The notes under the pieces are model-generated. The model made no database searches, was not told where the DNA came from, and saw nothing but the letters and a program-made list of their open reading frames with translations. Shown in pieces: positions 4,462-60,514 of a stretch of 64,000 nt of DNA. Position 1 is the stretch's first letter, and every line of letters begins with the position of its first letter. The translations under genes and the position numbers were made by a program. The DNA comes from a phage. Where the stretch lies: sequence record PZ452578.1, one strand, 5' to 3'.

Positions 4462-4561
4462 AGTAAACGTTTAATACATCAATCATTAAAACGATTGGGA
4501 ATATACTCAAAACTACTAGTATTATAACTACATTCCATATAGCTTTAACAATCTTTTTCAT
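4448..4561 (-). CDS. small membrane protein (37 aa)
   Basis: Internal ATG at 4561 preceded by GGAGG; track ORF N-terminal extension is read-through of the promoter/leader. Confidence 0.5.
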   Translation of the reverse strand: MKKIVKAIWNVVIILVVLSIFPIVLMIDVLNVYFGFM

Positions 4562-4589
4562 TTTCTGTTCCTCCGTAGTTGATAGTTGT

Positions 4590-4635
4590 ATAGTACCACA
4601 GAGGAACAGTCTTGTAAACAACTTTTTAAAAATAT
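4590..4635 (-). promoter_or_regulatory. T4-type early promoter with conserved leader (near-identical twin at 58298..58335)
   Basis: Plus atagta 4590-4595, gtaaac 4614-4619; 17-bp spacer; TGg extended -10. Confidence 0.7.
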
Positions 4636-4835
4636 TCGTAATAAATGTGAATACCAACTACTACCGCTGAAACCTGTGCAACCCACCACGCACAAGCAAT
4701 AAGTACAGAATTCAAAATTTTCATAATAACCTCATCACAAAAGTAAATGTTAAACAAATTAATGGAATACTAATTAACCAAACAAAACACCACCATAATG
4801 AACTCATAGTTCAATCTCAACGATTTTCATTTTAC

Positions 4836-5042
4836 TCAATAATCCGCTAAAAGATCGACGATTGTATCACGAAGACACTTATTCGCAATACGTTTAAGAG
4901 CAATTTCAGTTTCTGGAGCATTTTGAATAATCATTGAATTCAATTCAGCCTCAGCAAACTGAAGTTCTTTAACTAATTCAGCTTTATATTTTCCTTGCCC
5001 TTTCTTAGCTTTTGCTCGTTTTAATTCAGCTGTAGTAAACAT
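4836..5042 (-). CDS. hypothetical protein (68 aa)
   Basis: Internal ATG at 5042 with GGAG RBS; upstream part of track ORF is promoter/leader read-through. Confidence 0.6.
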   Translation of the reverse strand: MFTTAELKRAKAKKGQGKYKAELVKELQFAEAELNSMIIQNAPETEIALKRIANKCLRDTIVDLLADY

Positions 5043-5076
5043 TTTATTCTCCAAATCCGTATCAGTTGATAATTGT

Positions 5077-5125
5077 ATATTACCACAGTCCTTGTGGTAT
5101 GTAAACCGTTTTGTGAAAAAATTTT
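5077..5125 (-). promoter_or_regulatory. T4-type early promoter with conserved leader
   Basis: Plus atatta 5077-5082, gtaaac 5101-5106; dyad ccaca-N5-tgtgg in spacer. Confidence 0.7.
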
Positions 5126-5683
5126 TTAAATGGAAAGATACCATCCATTGTAGTTGCTTTTTCTTACAACCTTACGAAGGTCTTCTCTATCACCGATGAA
5201 TTTCGGAGTGTACTGGATGACACCTGGATGAATTTCTTTAGTGTTGAATATAATTATACAGTCAGCGACTTGATGATTTAGAATGGGCCCTAGATTTATT
5301 CCAGAACCATATGGATATTCTCCGCTGCATCCGGTTGTTACCGAAATCCATCGTGAGTCAGTTTGATGTGTTTTGACTTCTACACGAAGCCCACAGTATT
5401 TTGGATGCGCCAATACATCCCATGCATATGTGTACGGATCATCGACATCTTCTTGACCTTTATTAACATACCCGCTTAACCAATCTGCTACAAAAAACTC
5501 TGCGTACACAGCGATACGACATCTTTCGATAACTTCTGCCTTATCCTGGTTCGGGTTTTGTTTTAAAGAGTATCTTGCTGTATCAGCAATTTTGACTTTC
5601 ATTTCACTAGTCAAGTCACTGTTCGATAGGGTAAATGTCGGAATCTGAAATAGTCTCTGTAGCCCCGGATTCGTTTTCTGCAT
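5126..5683 (-). CDS. denB: DenB endonuclease IV
   Basis: ORF track 185 aa; position between ndd and rIIB and length match T4 denB. Confidence 0.8.
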   Translation of the reverse strand: MQKTNPGLQRLFQIPTFTLSNSDLTSEMKVKIADTARYSLKQNPNQDKAEVIERCRIAVYAEFFVADWLSGYVNKGQEDVDDPYTYAWDVLAHPKYCGLRVEVKTHQTDSRWISVTTGCSGEYPYGSGINLGPILNHQVADCIIIFNTKEIHPGVIQYTPKFIGDREDLRKVVRKSNYNGWYLSI

Positions 5684-5739: not shown

Positions 5740-5765
5740 AAAACAAAAGGGCCGAAGCCCTTATT
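5740..5765 (-). terminator. Intrinsic terminator, CUUCGG hairpin followed by U-rich tract
   Basis: aagggc-cgaa-gccctt inverted repeat 5747-5762. Confidence 0.6.
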
Positions 5766-13008: not shown

Positions 13009-13051
13009 TTTATTCTCCAAGTTGTTTTCTATATCAGTAGTTGATATTGAT

Positions 13052-13100
13052 ATAGTACCATAATCAACTACTGATGTATATAGTTTTATGAAAAAATTTT
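13052..13100 (-). promoter_or_regulatory. Degenerate copy of the early promoter-leader cassette (good -10 TGgTACTAT, poor -35)
   Basis: Leader caatatcaactactgata and -10 conserved; -35 region diverged. Confidence 0.4.
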
Positions 13101-13105
13101 AAACT

Positions 13106-18693: not shown

Positions 18694-19296
18694 TTATAGA
18701 TTAAATCCTTCAAAATCAAGAGTATAGATAGTGTATGTTGAATACTTTTTGTACTCATATCTATCTGCAATTCTAAATACACTTCCAGCTGGTATCATTA
18801 CTTCTTGTTCATCTGAAACTAATTCCATATTACGATAACGATGGCTATCCGGAAACTTAAAGTTTGGATTGTATTCTTTACAGCGTAGAGCTTTTATAGC
18901 ATACTCCTGGAAATTGAATACCATAGGAGCTTTGAATTCAAAAATAACTTGTGTGTTATACTCTAAACCGGAAGCAAAATGTAGAGCTATATTTTTATCA
19001 TATGAAGCTGATACTACTTTATCAAATGTAATAATATCAATTCCTTGATTTAATATTTGTTTAGTCTCAACTGGAACACCTCTCCAAAGAGGTTTATCGT
19101 TTGGAACCAAACGAGATTTGATTATTTCATTTAACCAAGTATGGTCATCTGGTTTGTTGGTAATACAATGAATTAAAAGTTCAATTTCAGATAAATTAAA
19201 CCCTTCAGAAAGTAATTCTTCACGAATAGAAGCACGCACCGATGCATCCATTGATTTTATTTTAAAATCTTTTAGTTGCATTACTGAGTATTTCAT
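18694..19296 (-). CDS. modA: ModA ADP-ribosyltransferase
   Basis: ORF track 200 aa; matches T4 ModA length and position. Confidence 0.8.
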   Translation of the reverse strand: MKYSVMQLKDFKIKSMDASVRASIREELLSEGFNLSEIELLIHCITNKPDDHTWLNEIIKSRLVPNDKPLWRGVPVETKQILNQGIDIITFDKVVSASYDKNIALHFASGLEYNTQVIFEFKAPMVFNFQEYAIKALRCKEYNPNFKFPDSHRYRNMELVSDEQEVMIPAGSVFRIADRYEYKKYSTYTIYTLDFEGFNL

Positions 19297-23366: not shown

Positions 23367-23567
23367 ATGGTACAAAAATTAATGGCACTTGTTAATGCCA
23401 TCAAAGGTAATAAAAAACGTATAGCTTTTACTATTTCTGCTATGGTAGGAATTTTACTCTGGAACTTTATTTTATCACCTGTTGCAATTGCACATGGTAT
23501 TAATATTCCAGTAGTTACTCTTGATACATTTGTAGATTTAGCATTTGCTTTAGTTGGGTTAATTTAA
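23367..23567 (+). CDS. small membrane protein (66 aa), plus strand
   Basis: ORF track; AAGGAGG 4 nt upstream of ATG; two hydrophobic segments. Confidence 0.5.
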   Translation: MVQKLMALVNAIKGNKKRIAFTISAMVGILLWNFILSPVAIAHGINIPVVTLDTFVDLAFALVGLI

Positions 23568-24592
23568 ATCTTAGCATATTTAGATAGCCGCATTTTAGCC
23601 ATCAACCCCTGTGCAATATTATTTTTCATATATTCCATAATTTGTTCAGGGGTTGCACCTTCCTTTCTAATCATATCATTAACATCTTTTGATTTCCAGG
23701 GAGATTTATCCCAAAACATAACCCTTTCTCCTGCATCAACTAATTTAGTCATTCGTTTGATAGTGTCAGGGTGACGAGGTTCATTATCTAAAACCCACAC
23801 TCGTCTATCTTTAAATGGAACAACTTCTAAGTCTAATTGACCACCCGTAATAGCTATACCATTTTCAATAAAAAGTGAATCTATAGGTCCTTCTAGAACA
23901 TATACATCACCATCTTTAACCCGTTCGACACCATAGATTTTTGTTGCTTCAGGATAAGCTTTGATAGTGATATATTTTTGGGGAGCATCTTTCTTTAATG
24001 CACGTCCTTGAAAAGACTCGGCTTTTCCATTAGCATTATAAATTGGAATAACAAGACGAGGCTCAGGTATTTCCTTTTTATATGTTCCCGGTGCTATGCT
24101 ATTAACCAATTTAGGCCATTCGGTTGTAAACCAAAGATATTTCCATTTATCCTTTGGAATACAACGAGCTTTTACATATTTTATAATTGGATGGTCTTCC
24201 GCCAGTTTATCTAATCGAACACATGACGGAAGAGATTTAATTATTTTCTTCTCAGGTTGTTTAGGAAGTTCTTTAGGTTTTTCTACTGGACGACTTTTAC
24301 CTTTTTCTTTTCTTATTTCAAAGATATACTCACGATATAAATCAGGTTCAAACTCCTTTAAATATATTCCGATTGGTGCATGATAGTTACAGTTATAACA
24401 ATGAATATTTCCTTCATTATTATCACCATAATACCATCCACGAGCTTTATTCTGGTCGGTTTTTGAATCTCCACAAACAGGGCATCTAAACCGCAATTTA
24501 AAAGTTGAACTATTATTTACTTGTGTGAATTTAGGTAAATGAGCTAATGCACGATACGCAAACTCATTATCAATCCAAGGTATTGATGACAT
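23564..24592 (-). CDS. 61: gp61 DNA primase
   Basis: ORF track 342 aa; zinc-ribbon CPVCGDSKTD...CYNC; matches T4 gp61 length. Confidence 0.9.
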   Translation of the reverse strand: MSSIPWIDNEFAYRALAHLPKFTQVNNSSTFKLRFRCPVCGDSKTDQNKARGWYYGDNNEGNIHCYNCNYHAPIGIYLKEFEPDLYREYIFEIRKEKGKSRPVEKPKELPKQPEKKIIKSLPSCVRLDKLAEDHPIIKYVKARCIPKDKWKYLWFTTEWPKLVNSIAPGTYKKEIPEPRLVIPIYNANGKAESFQGRALKKDAPQKYITIKAYPEATKIYGVERVKDGDVYVLEGPIDSLFIENGIAITGGQLDLEVVPFKDRRVWVLDNEPRHPDTIKRMTKLVDAGERVMFWDKSPWKSKDVNDMIRKEGATPEQIMEYMKNNIAQGLMAKMRLSKYAKI

Positions 24593-24594
24593 TT

Positions 24595-24759
24595 TTAATC
24601 TTCTTTTTCTTTAGATTCCTCTTTTTTCTTTTTAGGAATCTGTTCAGGACCTTTATTTACTACAGCGCCTGACGTTGTTCCAGTAGAGATATTTTCAGGA
24701 TTACCACCTGAATCTCCAGCGACCATATCTTCTTTAATAAATTCTTTATATGTTTTCAT
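24595..24759 (-). CDS. hypothetical protein (54 aa, Lys/Glu-rich)
   Basis: Own translation MKTYKEFIKEDMVAGDSGGNPENISTGTTSG...; start lies at end of repeat copy A. Confidence 0.4.
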   Translation of the reverse strand: MKTYKEFIKEDMVAGDSGGNPENISTGTTSGAVVNKGPEQIPKKKKEESKEKED

Positions 24760-24805
24760 ATTAACCTCTATTCATAAAAGCATTAAAAATTTGGTCATCA
24801 ATAGA
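24757..24805. repeat. Direct repeat copy A (~49 bp) spanning a gene 3' end, RBS and next start codon
   Basis: catattaacctctattcataaaagcattaaaaatttggtcatcaataga; 2 differences from copy B. Confidence 0.8.
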
Positions 24806-25117
24806 TGGAATAGCAACCTTTTCGGCATCATTTAGCAAATCATTAATTTCATCGGATAGCATAACACATGTACCTTTATTTCCTGTAATTGTTACTGCGC
24901 AATTACGAACGTTTTCTTTATTAAATTTTAGGTTAATATTTTCGTAATGAAAATCCTTTAATGCTGAATATATTTTTAAAATAAAATTGTCTTTTACTAC
25001 AATAAACCCAACCTCACTATTAAAACGCGGTTCATGGAAACTGTAATAAACCTTTTCATCTATAAAATCGTATGAAATTTTTTCCATTTTTAAATATGAA
25101 AATTCAGAACTATACAT
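24761..25117 (-). CDS. hypothetical protein (118 aa)
   Basis: ORF track; similar to C-terminal half of next ORF. Confidence 0.6.
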   Translation of the reverse strand: MYSSEFSYLKMEKISYDFIDEKVYYSFHEPRFNSEVGFIVVKDNFILKIYSALKDFHYENINLKFNKENVRNCAVTITGNKGTCVMLSDEINDLLNDAEKVAIPSIDDQIFNAFMNRG

Positions 25118-25162
25118 ATTAACCTTTATTCATAAAAGCATTAAAATTTGGTCATCAATAGA
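25115..25162. repeat. Direct repeat copy B (~48 bp)
   Basis: catattaacctttattcataaaagcattaaaatttggtcatcaataga. Confidence 0.8.
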
Positions 25163-25744
25163 AACATTTACTTTAGACTGTTTTTCTGATGGTAATTCAT
25201 ATCCACATATTACAATTTTGTGATCAATATCAAAATACACAGAAGCAATATGATTAATGATATTTTCAGTGAAGTCTAAATCAACATCAATATCTTTTTG
25301 ACCAAAGCCCAAAGGATAAATAATGCGAGTAATTCGATTATCTTTAACAAAGATTCCACCGACATACTCTGTACTGCGTTTAAAGTCTACACGCCGACGA
25401 AATGAAAAATATTCAGGCTCTTTATGAGCTCGGCTCATAGGACACAACGAGTAACTAGAATAAGAGATGTCAAATCCTACGCCTTCGATATGAGCCAAAG
25501 TGTCATGATTAAACCAATTATAATCGTACGCCAAATCCATTAGATTATAATATGTAAAAGGCACCGGATTAACATCATTAGTCACAAGCATGTAATTAGC
25601 AACTGCTATAATTTCATTGTTTTTAACGAATACAAACCGTGATTGATGCGAATGACCTGGACCCGCGTTTTCACGATTAATGATATAACACTGGGCACCT
25701 TTATATTTGTATGTATCTTTGCACTTGTGCATTTGATAGAGCAT
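25130..25744 (-). CDS. hypothetical protein (204 aa)
   Basis: ORF track. Confidence 0.6.
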   Translation of the reverse strand: MLYQMHKCKDTYKYKGAQCYIINRENAGPGHSHQSRFVFVKNNEIIAVANYMLVTNDVNPVPFTYYNLMDLAYDYNWFNHDTLAHIEGVGFDISYSSYSLCPMSRAHKEPEYFSFRRRVDFKRSTEYVGGIFVKDNRITRIIYPLGFGQKDIDVDLDFTENIINHIASVYFDIDHKIVICGYELPSEKQSKVNVSIDDQILMLL

Positions 25745-26037
25745 TATTCACCTACCACTTCAGCGATGATATTTTTGTTATTAAAGTTTTTATCGCAATA
25801 CAGAACATAATTATACTGCATTACACCACCAGACTTAAGCTGTTTTTGCACTTCAGCTTTCATTTCAGGACGATCGCGCTCAACGATATTCATAATATCT
25901 GCTTCAATTTGAGTTTCAACCTCAGTCTGATCCGCAGTCATAGACCATTCGCACAAATCTTTATCATAACCTGCCACAGCAGGCTGAGCAGCACAAGAAG
26001 CTAAAGCAAAAATTGTGGCAAAGATAAATTTTTTCAT
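25744..26037 (-). CDS. sp: Spackle periplasmic protein
   Basis: ORF track 97 aa with signal peptide; matches T4 Sp size and position. Confidence 0.8.
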   Translation of the reverse strand: MKKFIFATIFALASCAAQPAVAGYDKDLCEWSMTADQTEVETQIEADIMNIVERDRPEMKAEVQKQLKSGGVMQYNYVLYCDKNFNNKNIIAEVVGE

Positions 26038-26097
26038 GATAATCTCCTCAGTAGTTTATGTTTATATAGTATCTCAATTTCCAACAAAAGTAAACAG

Positions 26098-26397
26098 TTA
26101 TTTTAAAACTTCTGCGTAATCACATGTTACAAACTGTTTCTCTAGCTTGACGATTTTACGAAAGTATCTTTTGCATTGGCGAATCTGCCGCTTCGTAGGG
26201 CGAACAGCAAACTTAATAAATTCCACTCGACCAAATGGAGGGCTTTCTTCTGCTGGAATATCTAACACCAATTCCCACGTATCTGCAATAAGTGCTTTGA
26301 ATTGCGTATTTTTCCTGACGTTATACGGAGTAGGTTTAAATAAAACAATATGCATATTATCCTCGGCAATCCACTTCACATACTTTCTTGTCATCAA
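26098..26397 (-). CDS. hypothetical protein (99 aa) at the 61.4 position
   Basis: ORF track; basic protein between sp and dmd. Confidence 0.6.
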   Translation of the reverse strand: MMTRKYVKWIAEDNMHIVLFKPTPYNVRKNTQFKALIADTWELVLDIPAEESPPFGRVEFIKFAVRPTKRQIRQCKRYFRKIVKLEKQFVTCDYAEVLK

Positions 26398-26539
26398 TGA
26401 AAGCTTTAACTAATGCTTTATTAACTTCAGCATACTGAGTAGTAGCCCATTGAACGTCATCTTTCATCATTGTGGTTTCTTTAGTAAACATGCTTTCATT
26501 CTTAAACCACCCCATAAAAACTACCTTTACCAATTCCAT
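26357..26539 (-). CDS. dmd: Dmd antitoxin (discriminator of mRNA degradation)
   Basis: ORF track 60 aa; position directly upstream of gene 41; sequence MELVKVVFMGWFK as recalled. Confidence 0.75.
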   Translation of the reverse strand: MELVKVVFMGWFKNESMFTKETTMMKDDVQWATTQYAEVNKALVKAFIDDKKVCEVDCRG

Positions 26540-26568
26540 AACAATCTCCTCATTTAACCAACAAGACT

Positions 26569-26605
26569 ACTATACCATAGTCTCGTCAGCTTGTAAACTA
26601 AAATT
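26569..26605 (-). promoter_or_regulatory. T4-type early promoter (GTTTAC / TGgTATAGT) overlapping gene 41 3' end
   Basis: Plus actata 26569-26574, gtaaac 26593-26598. Confidence 0.6.
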
Positions 26606-28025
26606 TTAATTCATTCGCCAAAGCATCTAACTGAGCTCGAGTGGATTCATTTCTTTGATAGCGATTCTGTTCAGCCTGAATCTGCTGTGAACCTGCTACT
26701 TCACTCACTTCAGTTGGAGTAGAATCTTGTTCAATTTCTACCCATTTCTGATTTCCCTTTTGAACACCCATCAAAAACTTATTCCATTTGTTCTTATCGC
26801 CATATCGTGATTTGATTTGCTTAATGAGTTGTTGTTCAGCAGCTGCTAGCTCCTCGGTTTCAATGACCGCAAGCATAAAATCAGCTGTTGCTGGAAGACC
26901 GGCAGATTCTGCGATATCACTCATGTTAACATCAGAAGAATCCCAAGCTTGTTTACCAACCTGTGCTGCAGTCCAAAGAACAGTTTCGGTTTCAACAGCC
27001 AGAGCACGCAATTCCTCTGCAATAGCTTTAACAGTTGTGTAACTATTTTCTGAATAAACTCTAATGCGGCAAGATTTACAAATACCTAGATAATCGACAA
27101 TAATGATTGTTGGAACAAAATTCTTCTTGAGCTTCAATTCGTTTAAAAGTGATCGAAATGTATTAGCATCTGCTCCACCAGTAGGATACTGTTTAACGAT
27201 TAAACGACCAAGAGTAGATTTCTCACGCCATTTTTCCATTTTTCCTTTATACTCAGCGTAAGAAATATGCCCATCATCAATGTCATCAAGAGAAACATCG
27301 AGCATATTAGCGTCAATACGTTTAGCACAGACTTCTTCTGCCATTTCCATGGAGATATAAAGAACGTTATGTCCGAGCTGTAAATAATCTGCTGCTAATG
27401 AACAAAGTCCTAATGATTTACCAACGTTAACGCCAGCCATTAAAACGTTCAGTGTTCCAGTCTCAGCTCCGCCTTTAGTAATTTTGTTTAGAATTCTGAG
27501 TTTAAATGGAACCTTACGAGCTTTATTCATATAAGATAGCCAACGTGCTTCATAGTCATCCATCCAATCATGGCCAACGTAGCTATCAAATGAAATTGAT
27601 AATGCTTGGCGCATGATGTCAGGAATAGCACCTACATCTGGCATTTTCTTATTTCGTTTTTCTGGAGGAAGCTCAGCATTAGTTTGAATTTCGATTATTT
27701 TAGACGTAGCATTAAACATCGCCCTTTGCTGAACATATTTTTCTGTTTCTTTTACTAACCAGCTGTGGTCTTCTGGAGAATCAGCCAGTTTTGAAATAAG
27801 TGTTTTTACACCAGAATATTCTGTTTCAGTAAATGAACTATTTTCTAATGCAACATTTAACGCATTAATAGATGGAACGCTATGATACTCATTGACATGA
27901 GATTTAATTAATTTGAATGTATTTTTAGCTGGACCACTTTCAAAATATTCTGAATCCATATATGGCCAAACTTTTGAAAAATAAGCTTGATCAAATATGA
28001 GATGAGAAAGAATAATTTCTACCAC
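26598..28025 (-). CDS. 41: gp41 replicative DNA helicase (DnaB-like)
   Basis: ORF track 475 aa; Walker A GVNVGKS; matches T4 gp41 length. Confidence 0.95.
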   Translation of the reverse strand: MVEIILSHLIFDQAYFSKVWPYMDSEYFESGPAKNTFKLIKSHVNEYHSVPSINALNVALENSSFTETEYSGVKTLISKLADSPEDHSWLVKETEKYVQQRAMFNATSKIIEIQTNAELPPEKRNKKMPDVGAIPDIMRQALSISFDSYVGHDWMDDYEARWLSYMNKARKVPFKLRILNKITKGGAETGTLNVLMAGVNVGKSLGLCSLAADYLQLGHNVLYISMEMAEEVCAKRIDANMLDVSLDDIDDGHISYAEYKGKMEKWREKSTLGRLIVKQYPTGGADANTFRSLLNELKLKKNFVPTIIIVDYLGICKSCRIRVYSENSYTTVKAIAEELRALAVETETVLWTAAQVGKQAWDSSDVNMSDIAESAGLPATADFMLAVIETEELAAAEQQLIKQIKSRYGDKNKWNKFLMGVQKGNQKWVEIEQDSTPTEVSEVAGSQQIQAEQNRYQRNESTRAQLDALANELKF

Positions 28026-29630: not shown

Positions 29631-30472
29631 TTAATCAACTGCTATCGGATGAATAGCATTAAACTTATGAAATGCTTCTGATTTTTCTTTGCGCGAAACA
29701 CACATGCGAAGAACCTTTAATGGCTCGTCTTCTTCACCCAACGATTTTCGTTTTTCAATATTAGAAGTTTTCCAACGAGCTTGCTCTGGAAACTCTCTAT
29801 TGATTTGCTCAAGCGCTCTATTATGTTTAGAATTACTACGAATTGAACTGCACCCGCCAGGAGCTTGTGCTTTTCCAGATACAACCAGATATTTGAACAA
29901 GGCCAAATGCGGATAACCTTGATTAATTAAATTGAGAAATGCATACATATCTTCGCACAAATCAATTTTTCCATACCCAATTTGTTCTGTCGTAAGTTTT
30001 CCAAGGTCATACCATGTATTCGTGAATCCATATGAATTTTCACGATAATTACCCCAAGATGAAGTAATTTTAAAAATTGGTAGACGAGCATGACCGTGAT
30101 AATACCCACAATCCATGGCATCCTCAACATATTGAATCAATTCATAGAACTGTTCACGAGTCAATTGATTGACTTTATCTACGCAACGACGATCATCTCT
30201 TTTTCGCATTGAACTCATACGAATAGTAGTATCATCGTCAATCATCCAGATTCGTTGACCTGCATACATATCAGTAATTGCTTTACGAGTACCGGCAATT
30301 CCGTTTACATCATCAGGAATAGTTACAATTTTAGCTCTAGACCCATAGGCATCATAATAAGCTTTTTCTTCGTGTTCACGCACTACAATATGGGTTCATA
30401 ATCAGTCGGAAACATATCAAGGGCAGAAACTGCCCCAACACGCTGATAACTTGGAATTACGAATTGAATCAT
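29631..30472 (-). CDS. GT-A-type glycosyltransferase at the beta-gt locus (not T4 beta-gt); split by an apparent 1-nt frameshift near 30383-30395
   Basis: 29-codon ORF 30383..30472 (MIQFVIPSYQRVGAV..., ATGA-coupled to gene 42 stop) continues in another frame as the 250-aa track ORF; DXD motif WMIDDDT. Confidence 0.6.
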
Positions 30473-31621: not shown

Positions 31622-32002
31622 TCACTTAGTCAAATTTTTTACACATGAATTATAAGAATTCACTACATACTCCATCGGAGCATTTTTACCAGTACGCCAT
31701 TGGTAATTATTAGCCCAATTAGCCCAAATTTCGGCGCAGTAGTTTTCAATTTTTTCTTCGCGTGTAATTACATCAGAATTACGATATGCTTGAGCAGATT
31801 CATCTGGACGAATAGCCTCGTCAAAATTCGCCTGCATTTGTTCTACTGTCTGTTTTGGAGCTTCTTTATAACACTTGACATTAGGATTATAAAACTTGCT
31901 TGAACAGTTTACAATTTTTCCTACATCAGACTGATTTACTACCGGTCCTTGAGCTACACAACCAGTAAGACCTAATGCAATAACTAAAATAGCGATTTTC
32001 AT
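31622..32002 (-). CDS. putative lipoprotein (126 aa; LTGC lipobox)
   Basis: ATG at 32002 with GGAG RBS; track start is a TTG in the leader. Confidence 0.65.
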   Translation of the reverse strand: MKIAILVIALGLTGCVAQGPVVNQSDVGKIVNCSSKFYNPNVKCYKEAPKQTVEQMQANFDEAIRPDESAQAYRNSDVITREEKIENYCAEIWANWANNYQWRTGKNAPMEYVVNSYNSCVKNLTK

Positions 32003-32036
32003 TTCATTCTCCAAATCCGTATTAGTTGATAGTTGT

Positions 32037-32085
32037 ATAGTACCATGGAAGAACAGTCTTGTAAACAGTTTTGTGAAAAATTTTT
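32037..32085 (-). promoter_or_regulatory. T4-type early promoter with conserved leader
   Basis: Plus atagta 32037-32042, gtaaac 32061-32066. Confidence 0.7.
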
Positions 32086-32144
32086 AGGGAATCCAAAGGG
32101 TCCAGAATCATCTGTTTTTCATAAGTATAGATTTATATTACTTG

Positions 32145-47592: not shown

Positions 47593-47622
47593 ATCAATTC
47601 CTCAAAGGCAATTCATGTGTTA

Positions 47623-47665
47623 ATAATACCACAGTTTGAGCTCGTTGTAAACAACTTTGTGAAAA
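47623..47665 (-). promoter_or_regulatory. T4-type early promoter (GTTTAC / TGgTATTAT)
   Basis: Plus ataata 47623-47628, gtaaac 47647-47652. Confidence 0.6.
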
Positions 47666-47721
47666 TTATTTTAAGGAATGATAAGAAGTGAACGATAGCT
47701 TAGAATGGTAATATACAGAAT

Positions 47722-57741: not shown

Positions 57742-58269
57742 TTATGCGAGTACCGTCTTTAACCGTTCTTCAAACTTCCGAAGAGTATTCTGGCGTTCAG
57801 CTCTTTGCTTTTTGTAAGTTTCAATACGCTCTGAAATGAGAGTGTATCGTTCATTTACTGATTCTTTCATAAAATCAGGAATTTCACGAGAAGCTTTAAT
57901 CTCGTCAAATTTATCAATAACAGCTTGCTCTTCAGCAATTAAGTTATCATACATCAAAATATCTTTCTTGATGAACTCAATATCTTCTTGAGTTACACGA
58001 GATAACTTAGATGCTTTATCCTTTTTGTACTGTTCGTTAGTATCACGAGACCAGTGTAATGCACGATTTTTATTCGTATTTTTGTAAATTTCTACAATAC
58101 CAATCTCATCAATAATAACGATCCAATTCCAACGGGATTTGTAAATCTGCCCTCCATCAACCGTAATTTCACCTCCGATTGAGATGTCATTAAAGAACTT
58201 GCTTTGTGCTTCTGATTTAAATTTACCATCGTTGTAATTTACCAGGTTGAAAATATCTTTAGCGTTCAT
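57742..58269 (-). CDS. hypothetical protein (175 aa)
   Basis: ATG at 58269 with GGAGG RBS; track extension is promoter read-through. Confidence 0.65.
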   Translation of the reverse strand: MNAKDIFNLVNYNDGKFKSEAQSKFFNDISIGGEITVDGGQIYKSRWNWIVIIDEIGIVEIYKNTNKNRALHWSRDTNEQYKKDKASKLSRVTQEDIEFIKKDILMYDNLIAEEQAVIDKFDEIKASREIPDFMKESVNERYTLISERIETYKKQRAERQNTLRKFEERLKTVLA

Positions 58270-58297
58270 TTTGTGTTCCTCCGTAGTTGATAGTTGT

Positions 58298-58335
58298 ATA
58301 GTACCACAGAGGAACGGTCTTGTAAACAACTAAAA
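58298..58335 (-). promoter_or_regulatory. T4-type early promoter with conserved leader (twin of 4590..4635)
   Basis: Plus atagta 58298-58303, gtaaac 58322-58327. Confidence 0.7.
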
Positions 58336-58644
58336 GAAACTTCTTTCACAATTTTTTCCACTGAACCAAGCGCTCACTGCTTTCTTAGTCTCAGGAGCAG
58401 TGTTATCCATAAACCATTCAAAGGCAGCCTTTTTATGATTCTGGAGGGCTTCTCGGGCTTTAATCTGCTCACGGTCTATTAACACTAACATATGAGCCTT
58501 TCTTGTCACCATGGGCTTCTTATGATTTTTTGAATACTCCCAATCATTTGTCCATCGCATCGTTGTTGCGAATTGAAGTACAGCTTCTTTAATTTTAGTT
58601 TCGTAAATTTCACGAGCCTTTGAGTATAACATCATTACCTCCAT
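58330..58644 (-). CDS. hypothetical protein (104 aa)
   Basis: ORF track. Confidence 0.6.
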   Translation of the reverse strand: MEVMMLYSKAREIYETKIKEAVLQFATTMRWTNDWEYSKNHKKPMVTRKAHMLVLIDREQIKAREALQNHKKAAFEWFMDNTAPETKKAVSAWFSGKNCERSFF

Positions 58645-59434: not shown

Positions 59435-60399
59435 TTTAATAATACCGTTTCAGCGATTTCTTCCCAACCGTTTTTGTCGGTCATAATAAAGTCAGCAAGA
59501 TAAAGAGCAGTACGCAGTGAAACATTACGTAAACGATTAACATTGACTTTCATCCATGATAATGCTTTATAAGTTTCTTCATCAGAAAGACCGCGTTTTT
59601 GCATCATGTCAGTTGAAAGAATAACATCTTCAACCCTGACCATAATTTCTTCATTAGTGTGAACACCCAAATCTAAATAAACTGAGCGGGACACTAATGC
59701 TTGTAAATGTGGAGCAAGTTTAGTACCACGGTCTAATTCACGGTCAATGTCAACGTTTGTGATAAAAACAATTGTTCCTTTAAATTCAAACTCACGGTCA
59801 ATGCCTTTTTCTTCTAAGTAAGAAGATGCAGTGCTCCAGCAGACTTTACGGGTCTCTCCAGTGTCCAGAGCAGCTTTCAGAAGATTAAGAATGTCCATAT
59901 CAGAGAAAACATCCACATCATCAATCAAAAGGACAGAATTCTCTTCACGATTATTCCAAAGCTGTTCATAAAGACCGATACCAGAGATTTTACCATTAAT
60001 GCTTTTATACTCAATGTATCCAATATCATTTGCTTTATTTAAAGCTTTATCTAAAGAATACGTTTTACCAATGCCTGCCGCACCAGAGATAATTAATGAA
60101 CGAATGTTTCCGTTAATAATACCATTCGTCATCATTCCCATAACATTAAATCTTTTATTAATGCGGGTTTTCATATCTTCATATGATTCTTTAACTTCTT
60201 CAACTTTTACACCATCATATGAAATGTCTGATTTGTAAACCCAAACACCGCGACGCTTACCGTCAATTTCAACAAAAACTTTACCATCTCCTTGTGCATC
60301 TACCGGAGCATTATCAGGGAACCACTCACCTAAGAGTTCAAAAGTTCCAGAGATTTCTTTACCGAAGTAGATACCCTTATTGATAGTTACAGTTTTCAT
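59431..60399 (-). CDS. P-loop NTPase (AAA+-like), 323 aa
   Basis: ATG at 60399 with GGAG RBS; Walker A GAAGIGKT, Walker B VLLIDDVD. Confidence 0.7.
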   Translation of the reverse strand: MKTVTINKGIYFGKEISGTFELLGEWFPDNAPVDAQGDGKVFVEIDGKRRGVWVYKSDISYDGVKVEEVKESYEDMKTRINKRFNVMGMMTNGIINGNIRSLIISGAAGIGKTYSLDKALNKANDIGYIEYKSINGKISGIGLYEQLWNNREENSVLLIDDVDVFSDMDILNLLKAALDTGETRKVCWSTASSYLEEKGIDREFEFKGTIVFITNVDIDRELDRGTKLAPHLQALVSRSVYLDLGVHTNEEIMVRVEDVILSTDMMQKRGLSDEETYKALSWMKVNVNRLRNVSLRTALYLADFIMTDKNGWEEIAETVLLK

Positions 60400-60436
60400 T
60401 TTATTCTCCAAATCTGTATCAGTAGTTGATAGTTGT

Positions 60437-60480
60437 ATAGTACCATAAAGCTTTATGCTTGTAAACAGTTTTGTGAAAAA
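60437..60480 (-). promoter_or_regulatory. T4-type early promoter with conserved leader
   Basis: Plus atagta 60437-60442, gtaaac 60461-60466. Confidence 0.7.
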
Positions 60481-60484
60481 ATTT

Positions 60485-60514
60485 TGAAATAAAAAGGGAG
60501 CCCGAAGGCTCCCT
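60485..60514 (-). terminator. Intrinsic terminator (GGGAGCC-UUCG-GGCUCCC + U-run)
   Basis: Inverted repeat 60496-60513 with A-run 60491-60495 on plus. Confidence 0.7.

Follow-up and report, generated by a model that had tools for sequence, protein, structure and literature searches.

A duplicated gene-boundary module with a P61-type middle promoter as probable crossover site beside adfA in a T4-like phage

Phages of the T4 type are known to shuffle genome modules by means of PeSL (promoter-early stem-loop) cassettes (Arbiol et al. 2010, PMC2839356; Comeau et al. 2014, PMC4122927). Copies of these cassettes flank optional ORFs and recombine with each other, which leads to deletions, insertions and mini-circles, and for recombination of the T4 type a homology shorter than 50 bp is enough (PMC2839356). 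PeSL cassettes are intergenic and combine a sigma-70 early promoter, including its -35 box, with a GC-rich stem-loop terminator; middle promoters are not mentioned in the PeSL paper (PMC2839356). Recombination between short repeats has precedents in T4-type phages (PMC2839356; 10.1101/2022.04.14.488369), and amplifications and deletions at short homologies are on record for T4 (tifA locus, Srikant et al. 2022; Wu et al. 1991; Kumagai et al. 1993; as cited in 10.1101/2022.04.14.488369). The locus comprising dmd, tifA and adfA has been named the anti-TA island (10.1101/2022.04.14.488369). Its product AdfA binds and neutralizes the DarT1 toxin with a specificity set by residue 164, and T4 can lose adfA without any phenotype (PMC11257639). 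MotA-dependent middle promoters follow the consensus (a/t)(a/t)(a/t)TGCTTtA, 12+/-1 bp from TAtaaT, and for one of them, P61, the start site is given as 19122 in Table 1 (PMC2988021; Marshall, Sharma & Hinton 1999 as listed there).

The window, i.e., the whole stretch of 64,000 nucleotides analyzed here (sequence record PZ452578.1), derives from a T4-like phage (Tequatrovirus). All genes in the region of the locus are encoded on the minus strand (Table 1). The 204-aa protein scores 437 bits against PF23813, above the gathering score, and covers model positions 1-204 of 211, the last seven positions being lost via a frameshift. At the position of residue 164, as numbered by alignment, the AdfA of the window has the permissive His (NIINHIAS vs NINRIAS in the Mosigvirus type). 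Upstream of tifA and dmd a candidate sigma-70-like early promoter was found at 26597-26569.

A preliminary description, made from the letters of the sequence only, had reported a direct repeat of 48-49 bp at the 3' ends of two adjacent genes, here identified as adfA and the 118-aa gene, and we can confirm that the repeat is real and did not arise by chance. The reported coordinates are exact: 47 of 48 positions are identical within the repeat, and identity drops to 27-28% in the 60 nt to either side, so that the edges are sharp. Repeated 20-mers were absent from shuffled versions of the window, and an 18-mer taken from the repeat was found twice with up to three mismatches, 0.21 occurrences being expected. 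As described, the copies differ by one C/T (24768 vs 25126) and by one base in an A-run (24785-24789 vs 25143-25146), and each spans the end codons of a minus-strand gene, the ribosome-binding site GAGG, the stop codon TAA and the next ATG. The different reading frames at the ends of the two genes, ascribed to the 1-nt indel, were recovered as well (...SIDDQIFNAFMNRG vs ...SIDDQILMLL).

Table 1. Coordinates of the repeat copies, their predicted promoter parts, the surrounding genes and the PeSL-type repeats of the window.
Feature	Position	Strand	Description
gene 61 (DNA primase, gp61)	23564..24592	-	predicted to be served by P61
gene 61.1, 54 aa	24595..24759	-	ATG inside repeat copy 1
repeat copy 1 (49 nt)	24757..24805	-	last 14 codons and stop of the 118-aa gene, predicted promoter P61, ATG of 61.1; 49/49 vs T4 61.2/61.1 junction
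copy 1 promoter parts	box 24785-24776; spacer ATGAATAGAGGT 24775-24764; -10 24763-24758; predicted +1 24751	-	
118-aa accessory gene	24761..25117	-	phrog_4122; single-domain, AdfA-C-terminal-like; bracketed by the repeat copies
repeat copy 2 (48 nt; start-to-start distance from copy 1 358 nt)	25115..25162	-	frameshifted adfA tail, putative second P61-type promoter, ATG of the 118-aa gene
copy 2 promoter parts	box 25143-25134; spacer ATGAATAAAGGT 25133-25122; -10 25121-25116; predicted +1 ~25109	-	
adfA (T4 61.2, anti-DarT factor A), 204 aa	25130..25744	-	Pfam PF23813 E=9e-132; intact relatives 208-210 aa
sp (spackle)	25744..26037	-	left border of the variable slot
61.4/tifA	about 26098-26355	-	anti-toxin gene, same island as adfA
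dmd	26357-26539	-	anti-toxin gene, same island as adfA
gp41	26598-28025	-	
PeSL-type repeats	1250-1333, 4557-4640, 5040-5127, 13038-13102, 32000-32087, 47609-47673, 58265-58348, 60397-60487		

In coding orientation the repeated module reads TCT ATT GAT GAC CAA ATT TTT AAT GCT TTT ATG AAT AGA GGT TAA T ATG. Its 48-49 bp contain the last 14 codons of the upstream gene, which encode the C-terminal helix conserved in proteins of the AdfA family (SIDDQIFNAFMNRG), a MotA box (TAATGCTTTT), a spacer of 12 nt which includes GAGG as Shine-Dalgarno sequence, the hexamer TAATAT and the next ATG. In both copies the box agrees with the consensus at 9 of 10 positions, the final A being replaced by T, and the predicted -10 element TAATAT, which satisfies TAnnnT, is formed by the TAA stop, a single T and the first two letters of the following ATG. 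Protein tail, MotA box, ribosome-binding site, -10 box, stop codon and start codon are thereby packed into 48 bp. In the T4 sequence AF158101, TAATAT lies at 19134-19129 on the minus strand, and the +1, 7 nt after the hexamer, falls exactly on position 19122. Box and -10 element are separated by 12 nt in both copies as well as in T4. Copy 1 is base-for-base equal to T4 P61 and occupies the same position relative to 61.1 and 61, with the same box, spacer and TAATAT; copy 2 deviates only by a G>A exchange in the spacer. In contrast to the single copy of T4, the window has two copies 358 bp apart, and the second one precedes the 118-aa gene instead of 61.1. Judged by this identity, copy 1 is the predicted orthologue of P61, the promoter for middle-mode transcription of the primase gene 61. 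As the P61 start lies within codon 3 of 61.1, P61 transcripts cannot express 61.1 and serve the primase gene instead. Copy 2 is a putative second P61-type promoter at the adfA/118 boundary, which with its intact elements presumably fires but may be silent; at the predicted +1 it has a T instead of an A.

The pattern TGCTTY-N(12-14)-TANNNT matched the window 26 times vs 8.3+/-2.8 expected matches, and none of 100 shuffled sequences reached 26. Of these middle-promoter-like sites 17 belong to the minus strand, on which every examined gene between 14 and 38 kb is encoded. A minus-strand sigma-70-type site was found at neither copy, the MotA box occupying the -35 position, and within 24300-26700 sigma-70 promoters and terminators were not enriched and terminator-like sites were absent. 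RNA folds at the junction, where translational coupling or an attenuator hairpin was sought, did not exceed those of shuffled sequences (z -0.22, +1.65, -0.28). The promoter elements account for the conservation of only ~28 of the 48 nt. The SIDDQIF codons, upstream of these elements, need another cause of conservation, which may be protein function or gene conversion/unequal crossover.

Comparison with related phages revealed four layouts of the slot between sp and 61.1. The window, RB18, RB32, RB68, RB27 and Shfl2 carry both adfA and the 118-aa gene, T4 carries adfA only, T2 and RB14 carry the 118-aa gene only, and SYGD1 has neither gene. The preliminary description had proposed this interval for a comparison of copy numbers, and its gene content does differ between related phages. 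Junction-specific counts among 50,697 GenBank phage records gave 158 records with an adfA/118 junction, 141 with an sp/118 junction and up to 176 with an adfA/61.1 junction, and the spread listing contained about 27 records with neither gene. A count of 82 for the last group, obtained by a junction query, was inflated by the joining of nearby pieces and was discarded. T4 and the window differ by exactly one period of 358 bp, T4 having one module copy; the arms of the T4 alignment end at 25115 and restart at 24805, and their overlap is confined to the repeat, which places the breakpoint there. The segment absent from T2 corresponds exactly to the adfA ORF and SYGD1 is devoid of both genes; in each of these two phages sp abuts a related junction (GAATAATTAGAGGYTARTATG). 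Two N-terminal types of adfA exist, and as each of them is found alongside the 118-aa gene, the cassettes appear to have been reassorted. In Mosigvirus G2285 adfA shows 73% nucleotide identity to the window and the tail module 90% (2001-2049 of its locus); there the module precedes a different gene of 65 aa and has a -10 element TAAAAT and the box TAATGCATTT.

From these observations we consider it probable (about 0.8) that the repeat is a duplicated gene-boundary module with a promoter and that recombination between its copies explains why the 118-aa gene is carried by some phages and absent from others. Judging from the breakpoints in the sequences, we infer that recombination at the module, and not another route, was the source of the layout polymorphism. 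Recombination of one copy with the other would delete the 118-aa gene and yield the T4 layout, and recombination with a co-infecting phage would insert or swap cassettes; the layout differences may reflect gain or loss of the 118-aa gene. Gene conversion would keep the copies alike while the gene bodies diverge almost beyond recognition. Because less than 50 bp of homology is sufficient for T4-type recombination, the module can act as a portable crossover site. The near-identity of the copies would accordingly reflect a functional module with P61 that is homogenized by recombination, and not the scar of a fresh duplication. The module would thus represent a recombination handle within an anti-TA island and offer a mechanism for the balanced presence and absence of adfA and the 118-aa gene in several hundred T-even phages.

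The module resembles PeSL in that repeated regulatory cassettes surround a small optional ORF and in that genomes differ by the segment between the repeats, with the crossover inside the cassette. Unlike PeSL, it carries a MotA-type middle promoter, has no stem-loop and lies within coding sequence, overlapping stop and start codons. By analogy it is a functional counterpart of PeSL, from which it departs in three defining features while sharing the behavior. Recombination at repeated regulatory cassettes is already known from PeSL; here it would make use of a middle promoter embedded in coding sequence. With the events at the T4 tifA locus the module shares the locus, the recombination machinery and direct repeats as end points. 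Those events, however, involved microhomologies of 2-10 bp and were of laboratory origin, whereas here a functional module of 48 bp and a standing natural polymorphism are concerned.

Codon usage allows the two tails to be compared with the gene bodies. For identical degenerate amino acids in AdfA and the 118-aa protein, the same codon is used at 12 of 12 positions in the tail and at 8 of 21 positions in the bodies (Fisher P=3.6e-4), and under phage codon usage the chance that all tail codons match is 1.5e-4. The slot of Gaprivervirus VR20, Dhakavirus UGJNEcP4 and phage M719 contains a gene of 145 aa followed by a 118-like gene of 116-122 aa, both with tails of the form S(V/I)DDQIFNAFM(K/N)R(D/G) + stop + T + ATG. 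The two tails of VR20 differ at 3 of 49 nt and share the codons GTT, GAC, CAG, GCC, TTC, AAG and CGA, where Tequatrovirus has ATT, GAT, CAA, GCT, TTT, AAT and AGA. UGJNEcP4 likewise has lineage-specific synonymous codons common to both tails, and TGA as stop codon in both copies. The bodies of orthologous 118-like genes, by comparison, share only 42-43% identity between these genera. Diverged bodies together with tail codons shared within a lineage imply that the tails were homogenized or re-derived within lineages long after the split of the genes, and the shared lineage-specific synonymous changes indicate a probable concerted evolution of the two tails. Within the Gaprivervirus/Dhakavirus group orthologous tails show 2-4 and paralogous tails 3-9 differences, i.e., they are equally similar, from which it follows for this small sample that homogenization is episodic.

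On the coding strand copy 2 has a run of four T where all comparators have five. The deletion of one nucleotide exchanges the last eight residues of AdfA, FNAFMNKG, for LMLL, and the stop codon now lies 12 nt upstream of the next ATG. The run (25143-25146) forms the 5' edge of the MotA box, whose 10-mer is unaltered, leaving the promoter intact. Every full-length match listed among the 158 two-copy genomes has the extra base, so that adfA retains a length of 208-210 aa, and the four-T run was absent from the IMG/VR scans. A deletion private to this genome is nevertheless ruled out by phage ECO4 (MF001360), which has the same SIDDQILMLL ending in the adfA/61.1 layout, and by the Logan assembly of SRR547742, which agrees with the window at every one of 2157 nt (100%), deletion included. 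The respective contig, SRR547742_132 (2583 bp), matches window positions 27244-25088 and ends 43 nt past the adfA stop, just beyond the repeat, as a 48-bp repeat is expected to break short-read assembly. We thus regard the deletion as most likely a genuine and separate mutation, both rare and recurrent, in a gene that is dispensable. Broken adfA genes also occur in natural isolates, since the gene is split into ORFs of 72 aa and 101 aa in CT01 (1412-1974 of its locus) and AdfA of fPS-65 is truncated to 157 aa (BFVD A0A449C4E3); both cases fit the reported dispensability. The single module of ECO4 (MF001360.1, 2055-2130 of its locus) joins the four-T run seen in copy 2 to the AGA that is found in copy 1. 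This combination is suggestive of the chimera expected from a crossover of copy 2 with copy 1, or else of an independent recurrence; the identity of 97.6% between ECO4 and the window over the region limits the chimera reading. Comparison of 42 genes with AV122, made in view of a possible low assembly quality, revealed frameshifts only in adfA and one glucosyltransferase gene. The latter (29634-30472, minus strand) has a 1-nt deletion at ~30393 outside any homopolymer (CAATATG-GGTTCAT vs CAATATGTGGTTCAT), which splits the gene for a 280-aa protein after about codon 27. At ~28353 the window has an in-frame insertion of 6 nt (GTCTAA) vs AV122 in an ATCTAA repeat near the gene 40/uvsX boundary.

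The 118-aa protein constitutes a narrow family of its own (phrog_4122), in which a word-based search resolved five clusters, each at least 75% identical, and by tblastn the gene or a relative was found in 343 phage records. The preliminary description had regarded the 118-aa and 204-aa genes as homologous. The similarity it pointed to, VGFIVVKDNFILKI vs VGGIFVKDNRITRI, does exist and a distant paralogy is probable, but the statistical support is weak. The whole 118-aa protein, half the size of AdfA, reaches 34.4 bits against the Pfam AdfA model (cutoff 27) at model positions 113-211, and this score largely stems from the 14-residue tail: after removal of the last 14 residues there was no Pfam AdfA match, and a query made of just the tail, which was doubled because a minimum length is required, scored 34.6 bits. 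The Pfam label on 118-aa proteins is therefore an annotation trap that rests largely on a promoter-encoded tail. Full-length BLASTP of the 118-aa protein against AdfA gave 28% identity over 96 aa (E=0.003), while tail-less comparisons between the two families were not significant (E=0.9-5). A tail-less hhalign yielded P=0.003 with 10-15% probability and paired VGFIVVKDNFILKI with VGGIFVKDNRITRI. The 118-aa protein and the C-terminal half of AdfA have in common the C-terminal tail, a VKDN motif and an ENxxN motif at the specificity helix, and the distance from motif to tail is collinear (69 vs 67 residues). In AF2 models (pLDDT 58 and 72) both proteins show the order β-meander, helix, terminal helix, and reciprocal Foldseek searches led from the AdfA model to a 118-aa protein (E=1.5e-4) and from the 118-aa model to an AdfA homolog (E=0.023), although the models are poor. 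They are too weak for a structural proof of paralogy, and the reciprocity is supportive at most. Taken together, the 118-aa gene is quite probably an ancient and distant homolog of adfA. Orthologs of the 118-aa protein in Gaprivervirus and Dhakavirus are 42-49% identical; as the gene also occurs alone in T2-type phages, any duplication must be older than those genera. T2 has been described as naturally lacking an adfA homolog (PMC11257639). Its slot gene (1412-1768 of its locus; NC_054931.1) is a 118-aa gene with the AdfA tail and bears the RefSeq name '61.2'. Literature on the 118-aa gene or protein or on a duplicated P61 was not found.

Several other explanations of the repeat have to be weighed against a recombining promoter module. 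The preliminary description had seen in it a 'duplication junction still diverging', which would mean that the 3' part of adfA was recently duplicated in tandem and that the repeat is the junction, still similar. Adjacency and common orientation of the two genes, the weak similarity, collinear spacing and reciprocal Foldseek matches just described, and a period of 358 nt that equals the length of the 118-aa gene unit would all agree with such an event. Identity, however, falls from 98% to 27% at both edges of the repeat instead of decaying evenly across the unit, the gene bodies are without nucleotide similarity, and tail-less protein bodies are not significantly similar. Moreover, about 141 genomes have the 118-aa gene without adfA, orthologs exist in other genera, and a recent duplication cannot yield saturated bodies beside a tail with 12 of 12 identical codons, so that we regard this view as very unlikely. 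Purifying selection on the shared C-terminal helix alone, with neither promoter function nor recombination, is only slightly easier to reconcile with the data and likewise improbable. In its favor, three protein families with little else in common have kept the tail peptide across genera, both proteins end in a helix according to AF2, and synonymous changes do accumulate between genera (5-10 of 49 nt). It would not account for the codon identity within one genome (P about 1.5e-4), for the equal conservation of the non-coding part (stop, spacer T, ATG), for the coincidence with an experimentally mapped T4 promoter or for layout breakpoints that fall within the module.

An assembly artefact as origin of the repeat, or a sequencing error as origin of the homopolymer indel, is extremely unlikely. 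The indel does lie in a homopolymer, it is absent from the two-copy matches listed and from the IMG/VR scans, and the glucosyltransferase gene adds a second isolated frameshift in the window; but the two-copy layout is shared by 158 independent GenBank genomes, the independent Logan assembly shows the deletion too, as does ECO4 in a different layout, and the other frameshift does not lie in a homopolymer. Equally hard to credit is a programmed frameshift or phase-variable switch at the T-run that would provide AdfA with two C-termini, even though the same change from five to four T was seen in two lineages. Efficient transcriptional slippage requires a run longer than 4-5 T, the codon register CAA-ATT-TTT offers no canonical X_XXY_YYZ heptamer, a stimulatory RNA structure was not found at the junction (z = -0.2 to +1.7), and every full-length match listed has the extra base.

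The interpretation as a recombining promoter module can be extended to the slot as a whole, if only tentatively. The interval between sp and 61.1 might be a cassette array of single-domain AdfA-like anti-toxin proteins (AdfA, 118-aa, 145-aa) in which the promoter-bearing tail serves as an integron-like linker; we consider this possible but rather doubtful. If it were true, anti-defense specificities could be stacked, swapped or dropped without loss of the primase promoter, and the 118-aa protein would be an uncharacterized counter-defense factor that could explain part of the resistance to DarTG in phages such as T2, which are said to lack adfA. The protein is in any case nominated as a counter-defense candidate, and it is still present in phages that serve as 'adfA-less' controls, T2 among them. 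A motif in the N-terminal half of AdfA (FVFVKNNEIIAV) resembles one in the C-terminal half (GIFVKDNRITRI), and tail-less hhalign of the two halves gave P=5e-4. Going by this resemblance, AdfA looks like an internal tandem of a ~100-aa domain, of which the proteins of 118 aa and 145 aa would each represent a single copy.

The window also contains PeSL-type repeats of 65-67 nt that match T4 early-promoter cassettes (reverse complement of GTTTACAA...TATACAACTATCAACT; Table 1), and hairpin repeats of the form GGGCC-GAAG-GCCC are located at 5747, 5975, 37109, 43134 and 46770.
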